Below, piece by piece: positions 17,667-24,646 of a stretch of DNA of 39,624 bases (the first letter of the stretch is position 1; every line of letters starts with the position of its first letter). The stretch lies in UHGV virus genome UHGV-0068444, one strand, 5' to 3'. The stretch comes from a virus. The notes beneath the pieces were generated by a model. It was not told the origin of the DNA. It searched no databases and saw only the letters and a program-made list of their open reading frames with translations. Position numbers and translations under genes: made by a program.

Positions 17667-17808
17667 GGTTATTGACACCGGCTGCGATTGGGTAAAACCC
17701 ATCTACGGCACTGCTCATGATTGGGAAGTGCTGGACAGGCAGACCAAGAAAGACATTCTTATGCATAACAAAGTGTGGATGTCAAACTGTGGCTCTATAA
17801 CTTATTGA
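17587..17808 (+). CDS. Outer-membrane lipoprotein spanin (Rz1-like), overlapping Rz out of frame
   Basis: MYNRLLTICLMTLLIASC has a lipobox (LIASC); starts inside the Rz-like ORF in another frame. Confidence 0.6.
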   Translation: MYNRLLTICLMTLLIASCAKTGHVRIEVIDTGCDWVKPIYGTAHDWEVLDRQTKKDILMHNKVWMSNCGSITY

Positions 17809-18459
17809 TTTTGTTTTTTTGTTGTCTACCATATCAGGCAATGTGAAGGCATATAGAAGAAATACTTCGGTGAAACCAATCATTTCTTGAGCATCTTCTT
17901 TTGAAAATTCTTCATCAGAATGAACTGCTCCATTGGAATCGATTCGAACTATATGTGCCCATTCCCTCATTTGATCTGTAATCAGTCCCTTAGCATGCAA
18001 CATAGAAATCCGTTTAACCAATTTTTCATCTTTTGAGTCATTTCCCAGTAACTCCCGTGTAGCAATGTCCAAGACTTTACGGCAAAGCATAACGGATGTG
18101 TCGAAACGACAGCGCCCTAAGTTGTCTTTTGCTTCTATGAAAGCCATAGCAGCACGTGGCGGAGTGTGTTCGGGGGCGTTAAGGAGGGTGGGTTTCGGGA
18201 TGATATCAATCAACTGGTACTCAGTATTTCCAGGAATGATTACGTTTACATCATTATTTTGCCTAGATTTTGCACGAGGTAAATAACCACCGGGATTATT
18301 CATTTTTACAATAGCAATACCTGATTGAAAACAGCTTCGACAACAAAATGCAATATTAACTAAAGGCCCGGCGTTGATACGCAGTTCTGCCCATCCTTCA
18401 AGGACAGCATTTTCCCTCAGACAATGTGGGCAAGTGATATCGAAAGTGAGAATTCGCAT
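17782..18459 (-). CDS. Hypothetical protein with N-terminal zinc-ribbon (CPHC...CCRSC) and C-terminal helical domain; reverse-strand cargo gene
   Basis: Start MRILTFDITCPHCL after GGAG RBS (ORF extends to 18504); moderately AT-rich; C-terminal region loosely reminiscent of DUF4145-type domains (unverified). Confidence 0.55.
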   Translation of the reverse strand: MRILTFDITCPHCLRENAVLEGWAELRINAGPLVNIAFCCRSCFQSGIAIVKMNNPGGYLPRAKSRQNNDVNVIIPGNTEYQLIDIIPKPTLLNAPEHTPPRAAMAFIEAKDNLGRCRFDTSVMLCRKVLDIATRELLGNDSKDEKLVKRISMLHAKGLITDQMREWAHIVRIDSNGAVHSDEEFSKEDAQEMIGFTEVFLLYAFTLPDMVDNKKTKSISYRATV

Positions 18460-19140
18460 GACTCTACTCCATACATTAAAAGAAATTGAAAATGAATTAC
18501 ACAATGCACAACGACCTGAGTCTACACTCCTTCAACGATATGAAGTATCGAATGAGATTAAAAAAAAGGAGTTTGTAGTCGCTTTGATCGGTAAACTGAT
18601 AGAATTGGACCGCCGTCTCTATGTCACATCATTGAAGCCTTAGTTTCAATTTTACCGATTTATCGCTTAAGGGGTAGGACTTCAACACTACTAAGTGAGC
18701 ATTGCAGCAGGCATTCAGGGGAATGCTGTGACAGTAGTTAGCTAGGGTAAACCGTTTGCGCCTGGGGATTTTACTTTGCGACGGAAAATTAAAAAACTAT
18801 ATGATTTCTTATCCCACTAGGATGTCTGCGGACTACTACTGACTGTTTAGGCTATTACGAGGGGCTCAAACTCAACGTCTGGCATCAACGCAGAACTGAA
18901 AAAGTCGCCATGAATGTGGTTACGGTATTTGGTGGGATATAAACGTACCTTCATTTCTAAGCTTGATAATCACCTTTGTCCGAATTGCCTACGCGATAGT
19001 CATGTAGTTTTAGTCATAACCGTTTACCCTATTGATGTCAAGATAAATTGGATAACACTGATGAATCGAACCTCTAAATCCTTTGATGGGCCACTCATAG
19101 CTGACTGGTTCAAAAAAGTGTTATCAATGGTATGATAAGT

Positions 19141-19170
19141 TGAGATGAAAGGTGTAAATGAACTATAATA
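19141..19170 (+). promoter_or_regulatory. Sigma70-like promoter for the 19205-19854 two-gene cassette
   Basis: -35 TTGAGA (19141-19146), 18-bp spacer, -10 TATAAT (19165-19170). Confidence 0.5.
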
Positions 19171-19204
19171 ATTCAACAGTTAATCTGAGAAAAATGGATT
19201 ATGT

Positions 19205-19474
19205 ATGTCGAATGTAAAAAAAATAGATGCTATAGTTCAAAATTTATTTGAATTCAGAGATGCTACAGGTGAACTTACGGATAAAAATATTGTTTTAATA
19301 CAAAAAATCATAACGAACTTACCTGACTATGCTGGTAAGGATCCATATGAATTTTATTCATCATTTTCTGAAGATATTAATGAGTCGCTCAAAGCAATTG
19401 CCAATTATCATAAGGCACATGCTAAATACATTAATGCCCTCGATAAATTAGCAGAGCTTAGGTCGGAGGGGTAA
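19205..19474 (+). CDS. Small hypothetical soluble protein (89 aa), first gene of an AT-rich cassette
   Basis: Very AT-rich ORF; stop lies 2 nt before the start of the next gene. Confidence 0.55.
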   Translation: MSNVKKIDAIVQNLFEFRDATGELTDKNIVLIQKIITNLPDYAGKDPYEFYSSFSEDINESLKAIANYHKAHAKYINALDKLAELRSEG

Positions 19475-19476
19475 TA

Positions 19477-19854
19477 ATGGCTACGGAAGATATTCAGGCT
19501 TTGTTATCTAAAGTTAATGCGTTAAGATTTGAAGATAAAAGAATAGAGAAGGAAACAGGAGAGATTGAAAATGAAATTCAGGCTCAATTTCTTCGTGATG
19601 GTAAAACAAGGAGTACATTAACCATAACATTTATGAGAGGCTTTTTTGGTCTTATCGTTTTTTCTTTTATATTTGTGATAGCTTATAACTATTGCGCAGT
19701 GCAATGGGTACTTCAATTACAAAGCAAAGGGCTCATGGAGGCTTCTAAAAGTATCGCACTACTTGAGTTAGATAAGGTGTTATCTATTATGGTTAGTGCG
19801 TTAGGAACATCTCTTGGGTTTATAATTGGCTATTATTTTAAAGACAAAAAATAA
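19477..19854 (+). CDS. Hypothetical membrane protein (125 aa): charged helical N-terminus plus two C-terminal TM helices
   Basis: FFGLIVFSFIFVIAYNY and VLSIMVSALGTSLGFIIGYYF hydrophobic segments; followed by a strong terminator. Confidence 0.55.
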   Translation: MATEDIQALLSKVNALRFEDKRIEKETGEIENEIQAQFLRDGKTRSTLTITFMRGFFGLIVFSFIFVIAYNYCAVQWVLQLQSKGLMEASKSIALLELDKVLSIMVSALGTSLGFIIGYYFKDKK

Positions 19855-19930
19855 ATAATTTAATTTTACATTGCTATTTATGTTTTGCTTTTAAGATTTT
19901 TAACTTTCTAGATGTAGAGTTATTGTTAAA

Positions 19931-19958
19931 GCACTGGTATTTGCCAGTGCTTTTTTAT
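19931..19958 (+). terminator. Intrinsic terminator closing the 19205-19854 cassette
   Basis: gcactgg-tatttg-ccagtgc hairpin followed by TTTTTT. Confidence 0.7.
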
Positions 19959-20360
19959 TAAAATCCGCGGATTAATGACGGCAATCATGAATACTCCTCC
20001 AAAGACTGATCCAACGATACGGGTGTATAAGTCACACTTGTTTAATCTGTGATTGATGGCACTATAATTTATGTTGCACAACATAAACTGCCGATGGAGG
20101 GAATTGAGTGCTGAGCATGTCAGACATAAGTGTGTTGTCGAAGGTCTCCTCAGGCATGGTTTCTGCATAACGTCGACACTTGAAAGCCTCCATAATGACA
20201 ATAAAGTATAAGTATTATCATTATTAATTGTCACTTGCCGTTGCGACATGCTTGGGCGGCGACCGCCTAAGTTCTCTTTATAAATGAGAAGTTCCCGCTA
20301 GCGACCGTTTCTGATTCTTTTTTTCTACTAAGTTTGTATCAAATAAACAGGATAATGCCG

Positions 20361-20723
20361 ATGCCAGCACGAGCAAAGCGTCCATGCCGGCACAAGGGCT
20401 GTGCGGCAGTTACCAACGATGCCAGTGGCTATTGTGATCAACACCGACAGCGGCATGCTGGTGATGGCTGGCGTAACTATCAGGCAGGAAAGAGCAGGCA
20501 GGAACGTGGATATGGGCGGACCTGGGAAATTAAACGGGTGCGTATCCTTCAGCGTGATAAGTACCTGTGTCAGAACCATCGCCGGCAGAAGATTGCAAAA
20601 AAGGCGACCAGCGTTGACCACATCATTCCAAAAGCTCATGGCGGTACTGATGACGATTTCAATCTTGAGTCGTTGTGCTGGGACTGCCACAGAGCGAAGA
20701 CGGCAAGAGAGCGTATCCGATGA
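20361..20723 (+). CDS. HNH endonuclease (terminase-associated type)
   Basis: Start MPARAKRPCRHKGC (ORF extends to 20334); Cys pairs CRHKGC...CDQH and C-terminal HIIPKAHGGTDDDFNLESLCWDCH motif; sits just upstream of terminase small subunit. Confidence 0.8.
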   Translation: MPARAKRPCRHKGCAAVTNDASGYCDQHRQRHAGDGWRNYQAGKSRQERGYGRTWEIKRVRILQRDKYLCQNHRRQKIAKKATSVDHIIPKAHGGTDDDFNLESLCWDCHRAKTARERIR

Positions 20724-21058
20724 GTTAGACCCATTGCACATATTTTGGTTCACGGCTCTATACAATAGCTAACTGCCCAAAATAATGGGGTGGTTCATCG
20801 CGCCGCGCCAACCTGCACTGCAGCTATTGTGGGCAGTCAGGGCATAACTCTAGTGCCTGTCCACATAATGAGAGCTGCGGTCGTCGGCGCAGCCTGAATG
20901 ATGACTTCCATCTTGATTGATGCCCACACAGGCCAGGGGAAGGGGGGATCAAATCCCTGACCCCTTTCGCCTTCCAGGACTGCCGCCTGAAGGACATTTT
21001 TATACGCAAGAAATAAGGATCTTTTTTCCGGTAGGTTTTAACTATTAATAGAGGTGTT

Positions 21059-21493
21059 ATGGCTGGTGGAATTCGATCATCAGGCGGAGGGCGAAAGCCC
21101 GTTTTACCTTCAGGACAAAAAAGCAAACTGACCAGAATCGCACCTCCCGCTGAGTTAATGGGGGAGAATGCAATAAGACTGTGGAAAACCCAAAGTAAAA
21201 TTCTGATCGAAAGAGGCGTGTTTGAACTGGAGGATGCGCCCCTGCTTCTGGCTTACTGCAATGCCTTCCATTTAATGCTTGAAGCTGAAAAATTGCTCTC
21301 GTCAAGCCTGACGACCGAAAGTGAAATGGGGGGATTAAAGAAACATCCCGCCGTTAACATCAGAAATGATTCTGTTTCCCAGATAGCCCGTCTTGGCTCG
21401 CTTCTGGGGTTGGATCCACTCAGCCGAATTAGGATGCGTGGCAGTGGAAATGATCCGGACGACGACGGGAATGAATTTGATGAGTTTGACTGA
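21059..21493 (+). CDS. Terminase small subunit (P27-like family)
   Basis: 144 aa; position immediately upstream of and overlapping the large-subunit start; acidic C-terminus. Confidence 0.65.
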   Translation: MAGGIRSSGGGRKPVLPSGQKSKLTRIAPPAELMGENAIRLWKTQSKILIERGVFELEDAPLLLAYCNAFHLMLEAEKLLSSSLTTESEMGGLKKHPAVNIRNDSVSQIARLGSLLGLDPLSRIRMRGSGNDPDDDGNEFDEFD

Positions 21494-23214
21494 TGGCTAC
21501 ATATCCGAACGTCAATGCAGCGAACCAGTATGCAAGAGATGTTGTTGGCGGGAAGATCCTTGCTTGTCAGTTAACTGTGCTTGCCTGTCAAAGACACCTT
21601 GATGATTTGGAACGTGCGAAGGATCCTGCCTGGCCTTACCGGTTTGATAAAAACAAGGCCGAGCGATTTTTGCGCTTTGCTCAGAAGATGCCTCATACGG
21701 CCGGTGAATGGGCCAGGAAGAAACTACGAATAGAATTTGAGCCCTGGCAAAAGTTTGCCCTTGGTGTGCCATTTGGATGGGTTAATAAGAAGTCCGGATT
21801 CCGGCGTTTTTCTGAAATATATATTGAGGTGCCCAGGAAAAATGGGAAATCCGCAATTGCAGCTGCCGTTGGTAATTATATGTTTTGCGCCGATGGTGAA
21901 CATGGTGCAGAAGTGTACTGTGGCGCCACTACTGAAAAACAAGCCTGGAAAGTCTTCTCTCCCGCTCTACAAATGGTAAAAAAACTCCCGGCATTGCGAC
22001 AAAAATACTCAGTCAAACCCTGGGCGAAGAAAATGACCCGTCCGGATGGCTCTGTTTTTGCGCCAGTCATCGGCGATCCTGGTGACGGCGATTCCCCTTC
22101 ATGTGCAATTATTGATGAATATCACGAGCATCAGACTGATGCACTTTATACAACGATGACTACCGGGATGGGGGCAAGGGAGCAGCCTGTTACTCTGATT
22201 ATTACTACAGCGGGTTATGACATTACTTCGCCCTGTTACGAGAAGCGTGTGCAGATAGTGGAAATTCTCCGCCGTAACCGGACAGGAGAAGAAAACGAGA
22301 CAATATTTGGCATTATATACGGTCTGGATGACGATGATGACTGGACCAGGCCCGAAGCGCTGATTAAAGCAAATCCCAACTTTGGTGTTTCTGTTAAAGA
22401 GCATTTTCTTCGGGCGAAGCAGTTACTGGGAATATCCAATCCCAGCCAGACTAACAAAATTCTGACCAAGCACTTTAACCGGTGGGTAAGTGCAAAAACG
22501 GTTTTTTATGACCTGCAAAGATGGATGGCTGCTGCGGATAAAAACCTTAAATTATCTGATTTTGTTGATGAGGATTGCTGGCTGGGTATTGATCTGGCCT
22601 CGAAAGTAGACCTGAATGCCGTAGTGCCAGTGTTCAGGAGAGAGGTTGCTGGTATAACCCATTTTTACTGTGTGGGGCCGCTGTTCTGGGCGCCTGAAGA
22701 TACAATTTATTCACCAGATCCCACGCTGAAAACCATTTCTGAACGTTACCAGTCATTTGTGAAACAGGGGGTATTGATACCTACTGAAGGGGCTGAGGTG
22801 GATTATCGGTTAATTTTTGAGTCAATTCTTCAGTTACGCCAGCAGGTTAAAATTGTCCAGTGCCCGATAGATCCTTACGGGGCAACATCATTGCGCCATC
22901 TGCTTGAAGAGGAGGGGCTGGAATCCGTTGAGATCAGGCAAAATTTTACACATATGAGTGATCCAATGCGTGAAATTGAGGCGGCGCTGGCATCAGGACG
23001 CTTTCATCATGACGGTAACCCTATCATGAACTGGTGCATCCAGAATGTTATAGGGCGTTACTTACCAGGAAGCGATGACATTGTTCGCCCAGGGAAGGAG
23101 AGAAAGCAAAACAAAATAGATGGCGCGGTAGGACTAATGATGGGAGTCGGGCGAGCCATGCTGAACGGAACTGTCAGTAAATCGGCTTATGATGAGGAAG
23201 ATATTACATGTTGA
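21493..23214 (+). CDS. Terminase large subunit
   Basis: 573 aa; ATPase-like N-terminal region and nuclease-like C-terminal region (WLGIDLASKVDLNAVV); follows the small subunit, precedes portal. Confidence 0.9.
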   Translation: MATYPNVNAANQYARDVVGGKILACQLTVLACQRHLDDLERAKDPAWPYRFDKNKAERFLRFAQKMPHTAGEWARKKLRIEFEPWQKFALGVPFGWVNKKSGFRRFSEIYIEVPRKNGKSAIAAAVGNYMFCADGEHGAEVYCGATTEKQAWKVFSPALQMVKKLPALRQKYSVKPWAKKMTRPDGSVFAPVIGDPGDGDSPSCAIIDEYHEHQTDALYTTMTTGMGAREQPVTLIITTAGYDITSPCYEKRVQIVEILRRNRTGEENETIFGIIYGLDDDDDWTRPEALIKANPNFGVSVKEHFLRAKQLLGISNPSQTNKILTKHFNRWVSAKTVFYDLQRWMAAADKNLKLSDFVDEDCWLGIDLASKVDLNAVVPVFRREVAGITHFYCVGPLFWAPEDTIYSPDPTLKTISERYQSFVKQGVLIPTEGAEVDYRLIFESILQLRQQVKIVQCPIDPYGATSLRHLLEEEGLESVEIRQNFTHMSDPMREIEAALASGRFHHDGNPIMNWCIQNVIGRYLPGSDDIVRPGKERKQNKIDGAVGLMMGVGRAMLNGTVSKSAYDEEDITC

Positions 23215-23387
23215 TCACTCTTTTAAGTTTTATTATCGGCCTCGCCGGAGCCGGGTTAGTGTCTGCCGGTGCCTGGCTTATTTCACCTGCAGCCGGGCTT
23301 ATTACTGGCGGTTCAATCTGCCTGCTGTGGTCATTTTTAATCGCGAAATCGATGTCCGCCAGCGTAATTAAATCAGGGGGTGAATAA
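23208..23387 (+). CDS. Small hydrophobic protein (59 aa) between terminase and portal
   Basis: Hand-translated MLITLLSFIIGLAGAGLVSAGAWLISPAAGLITGGSICLLWSFLIAKSMSASVIKSGGE; start overlaps the terminase stop, stop overlaps the portal start. Confidence 0.45.
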   Translation: MLITLLSFIIGLAGAGLVSAGAWLISPAAGLITGGSICLLWSFLIAKSMSASVIKSGGE

Positions 23388-24646
23388 TGTTCATTCCCCA
23401 GATGTTTCGGGGTAAATCTCAGTCTGGTGGTGGTTTCTGGCAGGCGATGCTGGGTGGGGTGAGTTCCAGCCAGAGCAAGGCGGGGATCATTATCACTCCT
23501 GAAACCGCACTGGCGTTATCGGCGGTCCGGGCATGCGTAACGCTTCTGGCAGAATCGGTGGCGCAGTTGCCGTGTGAACTTTACAGGCGAGGCGCTAACG
23601 GAGGCCGTGAACGGGCGACTGACCACCCTGTTTATGATCTGATTCATTCCCAGCCCAACAAAAAAGACACCTCGTTTGAATACTTTGAGCAGCAACAGGG
23701 CCTGCTCGGGCTGGAGGGAAATTGCTACTCGATCATCGACAGGGACGGGAAAGGGTATCCCCGCGAATTAATCCCGGTTAATCCCAAAAAAGTCATCGTC
23801 CTGAAAGGGCCTGACGGGATGCCCTATTATGAACTCCCCGAAATTGGCGAAACGTTGCCAATGCGCATGATGCATCATGTGAAGGTTTTCTCGCTGGATG
23901 GTTATATCGGTAGCTCTCCGATCCAGACGAACGCAGACGTTCTTGGGCTGAACCTGGCCGTTGAAGAGCATGCTTCTCAGGTTTTTCGCCGTGGCACAAC
24001 GATGAGCGGCGTTATTGAGCGACCAAAGGAGGCTCCGACAATAAAGAACCAGGAGAAGATTGACCAACTTCTTGCTAAATGGACGGATCGTTATTCCGGT
24101 ATGCGTAATGCCTTTTCTGTCGCATTGCTTCAGGAAGGGATGAGCTACAAACAGCTATCTCAGGATAATGAGAAAGCGCAGCTGTTGCAGTCCCGCCAGT
24201 GGGGCGTGGAGGAAGTTTGCCGACTCTATAAAATCCCGCCTCATATGGTGCAGATGCTGGCGAAAGCCACAAATAACAACATTGAGCATCAGGGGCTGCA
24301 GTTCGTCATGTATACGCTTTTAGCCTGGCTGAAACGCCATGAAGGCGCATTAATGCGCGATCTGCTTTTACCCAGCGAGCGCGGTAGTCTGTACATTGAA
24401 TTCAATGTATCCGGCCTGCTGCGCGGGGATCAGAAGTCACGCTATGAATCTTATGCGCTGGGCCGTCAGTGGGGCTGGTTATCGGTTAATGACATTCGCC
24501 GCATGGAGAACCTTCCTCCCATCGCCGGTGGGGACAAATACCTGACGCCTCTGAATATGGTCGACAGTAAACAAATCTTACCTGGCAATAACGCGCCAAC
24601 AGCTAAACAACTGGCAGAAATCGAAACTATTCTGGCCAGAGCCTGA
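23387..24646 (+). CDS. Portal protein (HK97-like family)
   Basis: 419 aa; position after terminase large subunit and before the prohead protease. Confidence 0.85.
   Translation: MFIPQMFRGKSQSGGGFWQAMLGGVSSSQSKAGIIITPETALALSAVRACVTLLAESVAQLPCELYRRGANGGRERATDHPVYDLIHSQPNKKDTSFEYFEQQQGLLGLEGNCYSIIDRDGKGYPRELIPVNPKKVIVLKGPDGMPYYELPEIGETLPMRMMHHVKVFSLDGYIGSSPIQTNADVLGLNLAVEEHASQVFRRGTTMSGVIERPKEAPTIKNQEKIDQLLAKWTDRYSGMRNAFSVALLQEGMSYKQLSQDNEKAQLLQSRQWGVEEVCRLYKIPPHMVQMLAKATNNNIEHQGLQFVMYTLLAWLKRHEGALMRDLLLPSERGSLYIEFNVSGLLRGDQKSRYESYALGRQWGWLSVNDIRRMENLPPIAGGDKYLTPLNMVDSKQILPGNNAPTAKQLAEIETILARA

Follow-up and report, generated by a model that had tools for sequence, protein, structure and literature searches.

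A predicted cos site of the HK97/phiKO2 type between the HNH endonuclease and terS genes of a lambdoid prophage

The window, meaning the whole 39,624-nucleotide stretch of DNA analyzed here, is a lambdoid prophage with an integrase candidate on the minus strand (664-1869) and a lysis region at ∼16.1-17.7 kb, followed by the head and tail genes. The preliminary description had proposed a cos or packaging-initiation region in a 335-nt non-coding gap between an HNH endonuclease gene and terS, within a gene set of the HK97 type. Both the gene set and the boundaries of the gap were confirmed: HNH, terS, terL, and portal genes were all found, TerL is of the HK97 type, and the end of the HNH gene at 20723 and the start of terS at 21059 place the gap at 20724-21058, exactly 335 nt (Table 1). 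These four genes are intact open reading frames with full-length family matches, and a Shine-Dalgarno sequence, GAGG, lies ahead of terS at 21051-21054. The HNH start at 20361 was the one used in the gene calls of eight assemblies, and the HNH protein was 86% identical to phiKO2 Gp60, the HNH protein of that phage; phiKO2 Gp63 was also considered for this role and rejected, having no Pfam match. TerL was 56% identical to phiKO2 TerL (gp2), and its only match among solved structures in the PDB was HK97 TerL (6Z6D, E 3.5e-30). The gap was identical base for base in seven of eight other assemblies, with a single-base difference in the remaining one, and the exact terS protein was annotated in E. 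coli, with near-identical terS proteins in Citrobacter amalonaticus.

Table 1. Coordinates of genes and of known or predicted features at the HNH-terS junction of the window.
Feature	Position	Strand	Basis or content
HNH endonuclease gene, 120 aa	20361-20723	+	PF01844, E 8.7e-13; phrog_144, E 5.4e-37; accessory nuclease of the packaging module
Pseudogene, 66-aa phiKO2 Gp64 family (two CCHC zinc knuckles)	20720-20920	+	Same-frame homology
Left arm of predicted cos (right end of virion DNA)	20921-20980		G-run, AAATCCCT, CCT, GGAC
Left-arm G-run	20936-20939 and 20942-20947		
Left-arm AAATCCCT	20951-20958		
Left-arm CCT	20963-20965		
Left-arm GGAC	20977-20980		
Predicted 10-nt 3' cohesive end, TGCCGCCTGA	20981-20990	+	Alignment to phiKO2, PY54, and HK97 ends
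Right arm of predicted cos (left end of virion DNA), candidate terS binding site	20991-21030		ATTTTT...AAATAAGGA...TTTTTT
Right-arm ATTTTT	20996-21001		
Right-arm ACGC	21004-21007		
Right-arm AAATAAGGA	21011-21019		
Right-arm T6	21022-21027		
terS, P27 family, 144 aa	21059-21493	+	PF05119 (Terminase_4), E 5.2e-15; phrog_83
terL, HK97 type, 573 aa	21493-23214	+	PF03354 and PF20441
Portal gene	23387-24646		Follows terL

The interval that separates the lysis genes from the HNH gene (17782-20300) looks like an acquired accessory region. It contains a gene for a DUF4145 protein on the minus strand (17782-18504) and two small genes of unknown function at 19205-19854 (phrog_21707 and phrog_20796). 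Ahead of the HNH gene lie an AT-rich stretch (GC 21-40% in the profiled part, 19.8-20.3 kb) and a terminator-like hairpin (20250-20272).

Base composition does not set the gap apart. Its GC content, 49.6% versus 49.7% for the whole window, does not bear out the earlier impression of a GC-rich interval, nor are palindromes enriched: three with arms of at least 5 nt occur in the gap, versus 1.3 ± 1.3 in shuffled sequences (16% of which reach three) and 1.7 ± 1.5 per 335-nt tile elsewhere in the window, a count at chance level by both comparisons. The palindrome singled out in the preliminary description, ctgcactgcag, does occur (CTGCACTGCAG, 20813-20823), but it lies outside the cos site, on codons L-H-C-S of the gene remnant described below, is no more than expected by chance, and is not conserved, the corresponding bases in phiKO2 being ctgcgctgtag. 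Inverted repeats in the gap were only short or imperfect, and one direct repeat (GCAGCCTGAATGA / GCCGCCTGAAGGA), not conserved in phiKO2, was taken as chance. An open reading frame on the minus strand (20824-21126, 100 aa) is probably spurious; it was called in none of the eight assemblies, and virion DNA would split it at the predicted cut.

The description of the gap as non-coding holds insofar as no intact gene is left, but ∼200 nt of it are a pseudogene homologous to gene 64 of phiKO2. Gp64 (66 aa; MSYTRCNYCGSGFHTRANCPKTWGGSSRRANLRCSYCGQSGHNSNACPHNASSGRRRSLNDDFHLD; gene at L001 932-1132) is encoded just left of the phiKO2 cos and contains, by eye, two zinc knuckles of the form CX2CX4HX4C, a pattern found by eye once in the window. 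The knuckles are of the retrovirus-style CCHC kind, and such proteins are encoded directly left of cos in phiKO2-like phages and in some prophages; PF00098 (zf-CCHC) scored 16.6 and 16.3 bits, under the Pfam cut-off of 20.8, and no PHROG family matched the Gp64 family. In the window, the ATG of the remnant overlaps the HNH stop codon, in-frame stops follow at codon 3 (TAG, 20726-20728) and codon 22 (TAA, 20783-20785), and the first knuckle has been destroyed by C-to-F and H-to-Y changes. The second knuckle (CSYCGQSGHNSSAC) and the tail are intact, with no ATG, GTG, or TTG start in frame.

The Gp64 family is small (∼20 clusters), mainly from enterobacteria, and named only "hypothetical protein." Among relatives, gene 64 is intact at the same place in phiKO2, Kpn74, Kpn_R1, 48ST307, and loci L045, L062, L116, and L138; decayed in L129, L035, and L106; and absent from the ST846phi9.1-type phages, F1055, sal3, PY54, HK97, and the Vibrio phages, a pattern that marks it as a dispensable accessory gene. 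The remnant is thus a decayed accessory gene, lying outside cos. That it might still encode a single-knuckle peptide of ∼36-44 aa ending at 20920, which would explain the conservation of 20786-20920, is suggested by how little the second knuckle and its RRRSLNDDFHLD tail have changed (four of 44 residues differ from phiKO2) and by the existence of single-knuckle versions with their own ATG (P0019, 42 aa; P0016, 54 aa). We regard such residual coding as quite improbable, since the only potential start after the TAA at 20783 is a CTG at 20813 that lacks a Shine-Dalgarno sequence, and none of the eight assemblies calls a gene there. Either way, the assignment of cos would be unaffected, as cos lies downstream of 20920.

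Homology to the genome ends of known phages shows that the gap is more than a chance sequence. When 50,697 phage records were searched with the gap by sensitive blastn, 94 of them matched, exclusively Klebsiella, Salmonella, and Vibrio phages carrying the cos element, and the phiKO2 group of Klebsiella phages ranked best (Kpn_R1, E 2e-66). This sensitivity was needed: megablast of 20300-21500 returned six partial matches in 5426 complete E. coli genomes and two partial matches in the phage collection. The match to phiKO2 covers its right end (51335-51597 of 51601; 263 nt, 80% identity, E 8e-60) and stops 4 bases short of the end of the linear record, while the bases of the window past the predicted cut match the first bases of phiKO2 and of PY54. 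When the phiKO2 ends (...ggac tgccgcttca and ggtagattttt) are joined at the slash as ...GGGGGGATCAAATCCCTAACCCCTTTCGCGCTAAAGGAC TGCCGCTTCA / GGTAGATTTTTGCGCGTGAGAAATAAGAATTTTTTTTT, they align without gaps to ...GGGGGGATCAAATCCCTGACCCCTTTCGCCTTCCAGGAC TGCCGCCTGA / AGGACATTTTTATACGCAAGAAATAAGGATCTTTTTT in the window. The ends of PY54 have the same layout as the window, and those of HK97 the same architecture (...GGGGGGGGGATCAAATC...ATGAC/CGCCGCCAAA, then GTTTGAATTTAACGC...TTTTTTT; joined form ...GGGGGGGGGATCAAATCTTCAAAACCTTTGCCCCAAATGAC CGCCGCCAAA / GTTTGAATTTAACGC...TTTTTTT).

The ends of HK97 and PY54 have been described previously. HK97 DNA has 10-nt 3' overhangs, and its terS site lies at +15 to +29 downstream of the cut, T-tract included (PMC11331095); the positions given in that work (T16, C:G at 21, and an A-tract at 24-29) fit the numbering of the HK97 record, so that +1 corresponds to the base with which that record starts. 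Cleavage of the HK97 cos is stimulated by the HNH protein gp74 (PMC11331095; PMC9410871; PMC13595911), and PY54 has 10-nt 3'-protruding ends (PMC10612081). Comparison with the mapped cos sites of related phages, which had been named as a check on the original proposal, came out in its favor: sequence in the gap corresponds to the physical genome ends of phiKO2, PY54, and HK97, and the window aligns with their virion DNA ends column for column. The accompanying caution, that sequence alone could not reveal the cos, proved overly pessimistic, as homology to mapped ends leads to a prediction at the level of single bases.

A further record marks physical DNA ends through an artefact. GenBank OQ790078 (Klebsiella phage Kpn74; L003/L004) has foreign flanks at both of its ends (∼40 nt right, 62 nt left), which we take to be native barcode 03 and the ligation adapter used in nanopore sequencing. 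The insert between them runs from GGTAGATTTTT to ...CTTCGGGAC and is without the 10 nt TGCCGCTTCA that are present at that junction in its sister phages, Kpn_R1 and 48ST307. Because end repair trims away 3' overhangs but fills in those at 5' ends, a 10-nt 3' cohesive end is expected to leave just such a clean 10-nt loss. The overhang type of phiKO2 itself we infer from the ends of its record, from Kpn74, and from PY54 and HK97.

By alignment to these ends, the nicks in the window are predicted at 20990/20991 on the top strand and 20980/20981 on the bottom strand, with 20991 as the first packaged base and the terS start 68 nt further on; the virion DNA would then end in ...CAGGACTGCCGCCTGA-3' on the right and begin with 5'-AGGACATTTTT on the left (from 20991). 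The overhangs differ among phages (TGCCTGTCCC in PY54 and TGCCGCTTCA in phiKO2, as against TGCCGCCTGA in the window), and a cos whose overhang is identical to that of the window occurs in the representative genome of Citrobacter werkmanii. The overhang is less conserved than any other part of the core, with 50% identity to Vibrio phage K303 and many variants among relatives, and the region around the two nick sites lacks a two-fold symmetry that could fix their positions from sequence; both observations would be compatible with a cos in the gap whose nicks lie off the aligned positions, either because the overhang has another length or because the cut is shifted by a few bases. Such a displacement is unlikely, however, because GGAC and ATTTTT are equally far apart in the window, phiKO2, and PY54, and because the three phage records ending at cos and Kpn74 agree on the same alignment columns. 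The lack of symmetry also fits the suggestion that the two strands may be cut by different nucleases (PMC11331095).

With its HK97-type neighbors and its alignment to three sets of virion ends, the gap very probably contains, as first proposed, a cos site, which we place at 20921-21030 and assign to a temperate phage of the HK97/phiKO2 type integrated as a prophage. The site is an ordinary cos of the already known HK97/phiKO2/PY54 class: it lies at an HNH/terS-terL junction, is accompanied by a TerL of the HK97 lineage, and shares DNA homology with the genome ends of class members. The direct basis for this assignment is the homology to phage genome ends, the gene identities, the pattern of conservation, and the match between right-arm and terS types described below; the nick positions, the assignment of proteins to arms, and the continued activity of the site we infer.

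Headful (pac) packaging, in which the conserved element would be a pac site or a regulatory region, has nothing specific in its favor, although a terS of the P27 family is not by itself diagnostic of cos packaging. It is hardly credible given that the TerL of phiKO2, 56% identical to that of the window, belongs to a phage whose record ends at the element, that HK97 TerL is the only PDB match, and that the element coincides with unique genome ends in three phage records. A regulatory role fares no better, as no promoter or terminator rose above background in the cos core; a scan of the gap gave one promoter-like match (9/12), inside the pseudogene, and no terminator. Searches of the whole window returned no Rfam match at gathering thresholds and no tRNA, and a structured element was rejected because 20915-21035, folded as single-stranded DNA, was no more stable than shuffled sequences (z -0.18).

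Decay of the neighboring zinc-knuckle gene might also be taken as a sign that the cos is the relic of a defective prophage and is no longer used. The loss of that gene implies no defect, however, because it is absent or decayed in many relatives and is absent from the isolated phages PY54 and HK97; moreover, HNH, terS, terL, and portal genes are intact over their full family lengths, and the window retains all positions that the family conserves, all of which makes a relic quite unlikely. If the cos functions as its relatives do, then during lytic growth a ring of terS would bind the right arm at about +14 to +37 (21004-21027), by analogy with HK97 through specific bases and the T-tract. TerL, aided by the adjacent HNH endonuclease, would nick the two strands 10 nt apart at the positions predicted above, leaving TGCCGCCTGA as 3' cohesive ends, and packaging would proceed rightwards from 20991, through both terminase genes and then the genes for head and tail, to stop at the next cos.

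Distinct versions of the core, 41 in all, were gathered from phage records, IMG/VR contigs, and genomes. A pattern scan of IMG/VR gave mostly chance matches, and the 31 of 121 that passed a filter for the G-run and T-run were kept as family members; a scan of genome contigs with a stricter pattern recovered three species only. The left arm was kept in all 41 relatives, HK97 included, whatever the type of terS. It was 80% identical to that of phiKO2 and 72% identical to that of Vibrio phage K303, and across left arm and overhang the window was identical to HK97 at 46 of 66 positions; the alignment score on this side of HK97 was 18, versus -11.5 ± 4.6 in 1000 shuffles (∼6 sd above). The left arm and the GC-rich overhang may accordingly serve the nicking or termination step of the conserved TerL/HNH machinery.

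The right arm followed a different pattern, tracking the type of terS without exception wherever terS was readable. Type A right arms accompanied terS proteins of the "G(I/M/V)R(S/A)xGGG" type at 23 loci, and type B right arms ("ATTTTTATACCCGCGAAAAATGAAATTT") accompanied sal3-type terS proteins at six loci, L103 counted. In L103 (277-1605), a 184-aa gene lies between cos and terS, so that terS begins ∼800 nt after the cut versus the usual ∼30-70 nt. The right arm of the window was 87.5% identical to that of Vibrio phage K303, whereas DNA identity of the flanking genes was lower (terS 62.6%, HNH 67.8%), and 82 Vibrio phage records matched 20992-21027 at 94% by blastn. No significant similarity to the right arm of HK97 was detected.

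The terS protein of the window was 44% identical to phiKO2 gp1, 41% to PY54 gp1, and 49% to the K303 terS; HK97 gp1 was 19% identical in the multiple alignment and gave no BLASTP match. Arg6, in the N-terminal arm GIRSSGGG of terS, was invariant in the alignment, and a single-sequence AlphaFold model of terS (pLDDT 46) was too poor to use. The right arm is likely the binding or recognition site of terS, which would read specific bases and the T-tract as in HK97; this mode of binding is proposed by analogy, because the right arm is unlike that of HK97 and because the two terS proteins are so distant.

A broader reading, which we offer tentatively and as possible rather than favored, is that the cos sites of this group (HK97, phiKO2/PY54, E. 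coli/Klebsiella/Salmonella prophages, and Vibrio phages) consist of two modules that meet at the nick and can be exchanged: a left arm present almost universally (G-run, AAATC(C/T), GAC, and GC-rich overhang), which would be the recognition element for nicking or termination by TerL-HNH, and a right arm that would be swapped together with terS. One mosaic, L045 (1342-1500; IMGVR_UViG_2711768169_000005), from a close relative of the window, combines a window-type HNH end and left arm and an intact zinc-knuckle gene with a right arm and terS of type B (sal3-type), which suggests recombination at or near the nick; if the two-module reading is true, L045 would identify the surroundings of the nick as a joint formed by recombination. 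More speculatively, the small double zinc-knuckle protein encoded beside cos might be a dispensable packaging accessory.

The named systems nearest to the predicted site include the cos sites of the Klebsiella telomere phage phiKO2 (NC_005857) and the Yersinia phage PY54 (NC_005069), to which DNA homology extends over the whole site, at the 80% identity given above for phiKO2. They share the order of HNH gene, zinc-knuckle gene (where present), G-run/AAATCCCT/GGAC, 10-nt end, and ATTTTT...AATAAG...T-run, followed by a P27-type terS ∼60-70 nt past the cut. Unlike the linear plasmid prophages of these phages, the window is an integrated lambdoid prophage with an integrase; its right arm is 70% identical to theirs, and terS, as noted, only 41-44%. 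In phiKO2, genes for gp61-64 lie between HNH (Gp60) and cos, whereas the window is without genes 61-63 and its HNH gene abuts the gene 64 remnant.

Coliphage HK97 (terminase gp1/gp2, HNH gp74) likewise has an HNH gene at the right end of its genome, terS/terL at the opposite, left end, a clearly homologous left arm, a TerL of the same structural family, a 10-nt 3' overhang like the one predicted for the window, and, within its mapped terS site, a T-tract downstream of the cut. That tract, however, lies at +24 to +30 in HK97 and at +32 to +37 in the window, gp1 gives no score in PF05119, and the HNH proteins share only a 46-residue stretch, in addition to the distance between the right arms and between the terS proteins.

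The cos of lambda (cosQ-cosN-cosB) has 12-nt 5' overhangs and is served by Nu1/gpA and IHF, with no HNH protein. It resembles the predicted site in the flanking of the nicking site by a terS binding site (in the window, a candidate one) on the side of the terS gene and a conserved element on the other, and in the packaging of unit lengths from concatemers. The two share no sequence similarity, and a lambda-type cos was rejected for the window, whose terS belongs to the P27 family rather than to Nu1 and matches PF05119 and no other Pfam family.

The analysis predicts to the base, and in a testable way, where the genome of this prophage, which occurs in assemblies of E. coli and Citrobacter, begins and ends; the prediction can be used to orient the genome correctly and to annotate cos in related prophages. 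The comparison also separates the half of an HK97-type cos that follows terS from the half common to all relatives, and the common half points to where the recognition element of TerL/HNH should be sought. The current understanding of cos packaging is unchanged by these results; the modularity of the arms and the zinc-knuckle gene are modest leads.

In L029 (6141-11812; IMGVR_UViG_2609459977_000007), two different cos-terS-terL modules occur in tandem, 3.4 kb apart, in the order ST846-type cos, terS, and terL, then zinc-knuckle gene, phiKO2-type cos, terS, and terL, which could represent two elements lying side by side, a prophage that has been truncated, or a chimeric assembly. In L144 (NZ_BMZO01000013.1, a 52,353-bp contig of an assembly labelled Limoniibacter endophyticus), the cos core is identical to that of Klebsiella telomere phages of the 48ST307 type; since a phage of this kind has about the length of the contig, contamination is likely.
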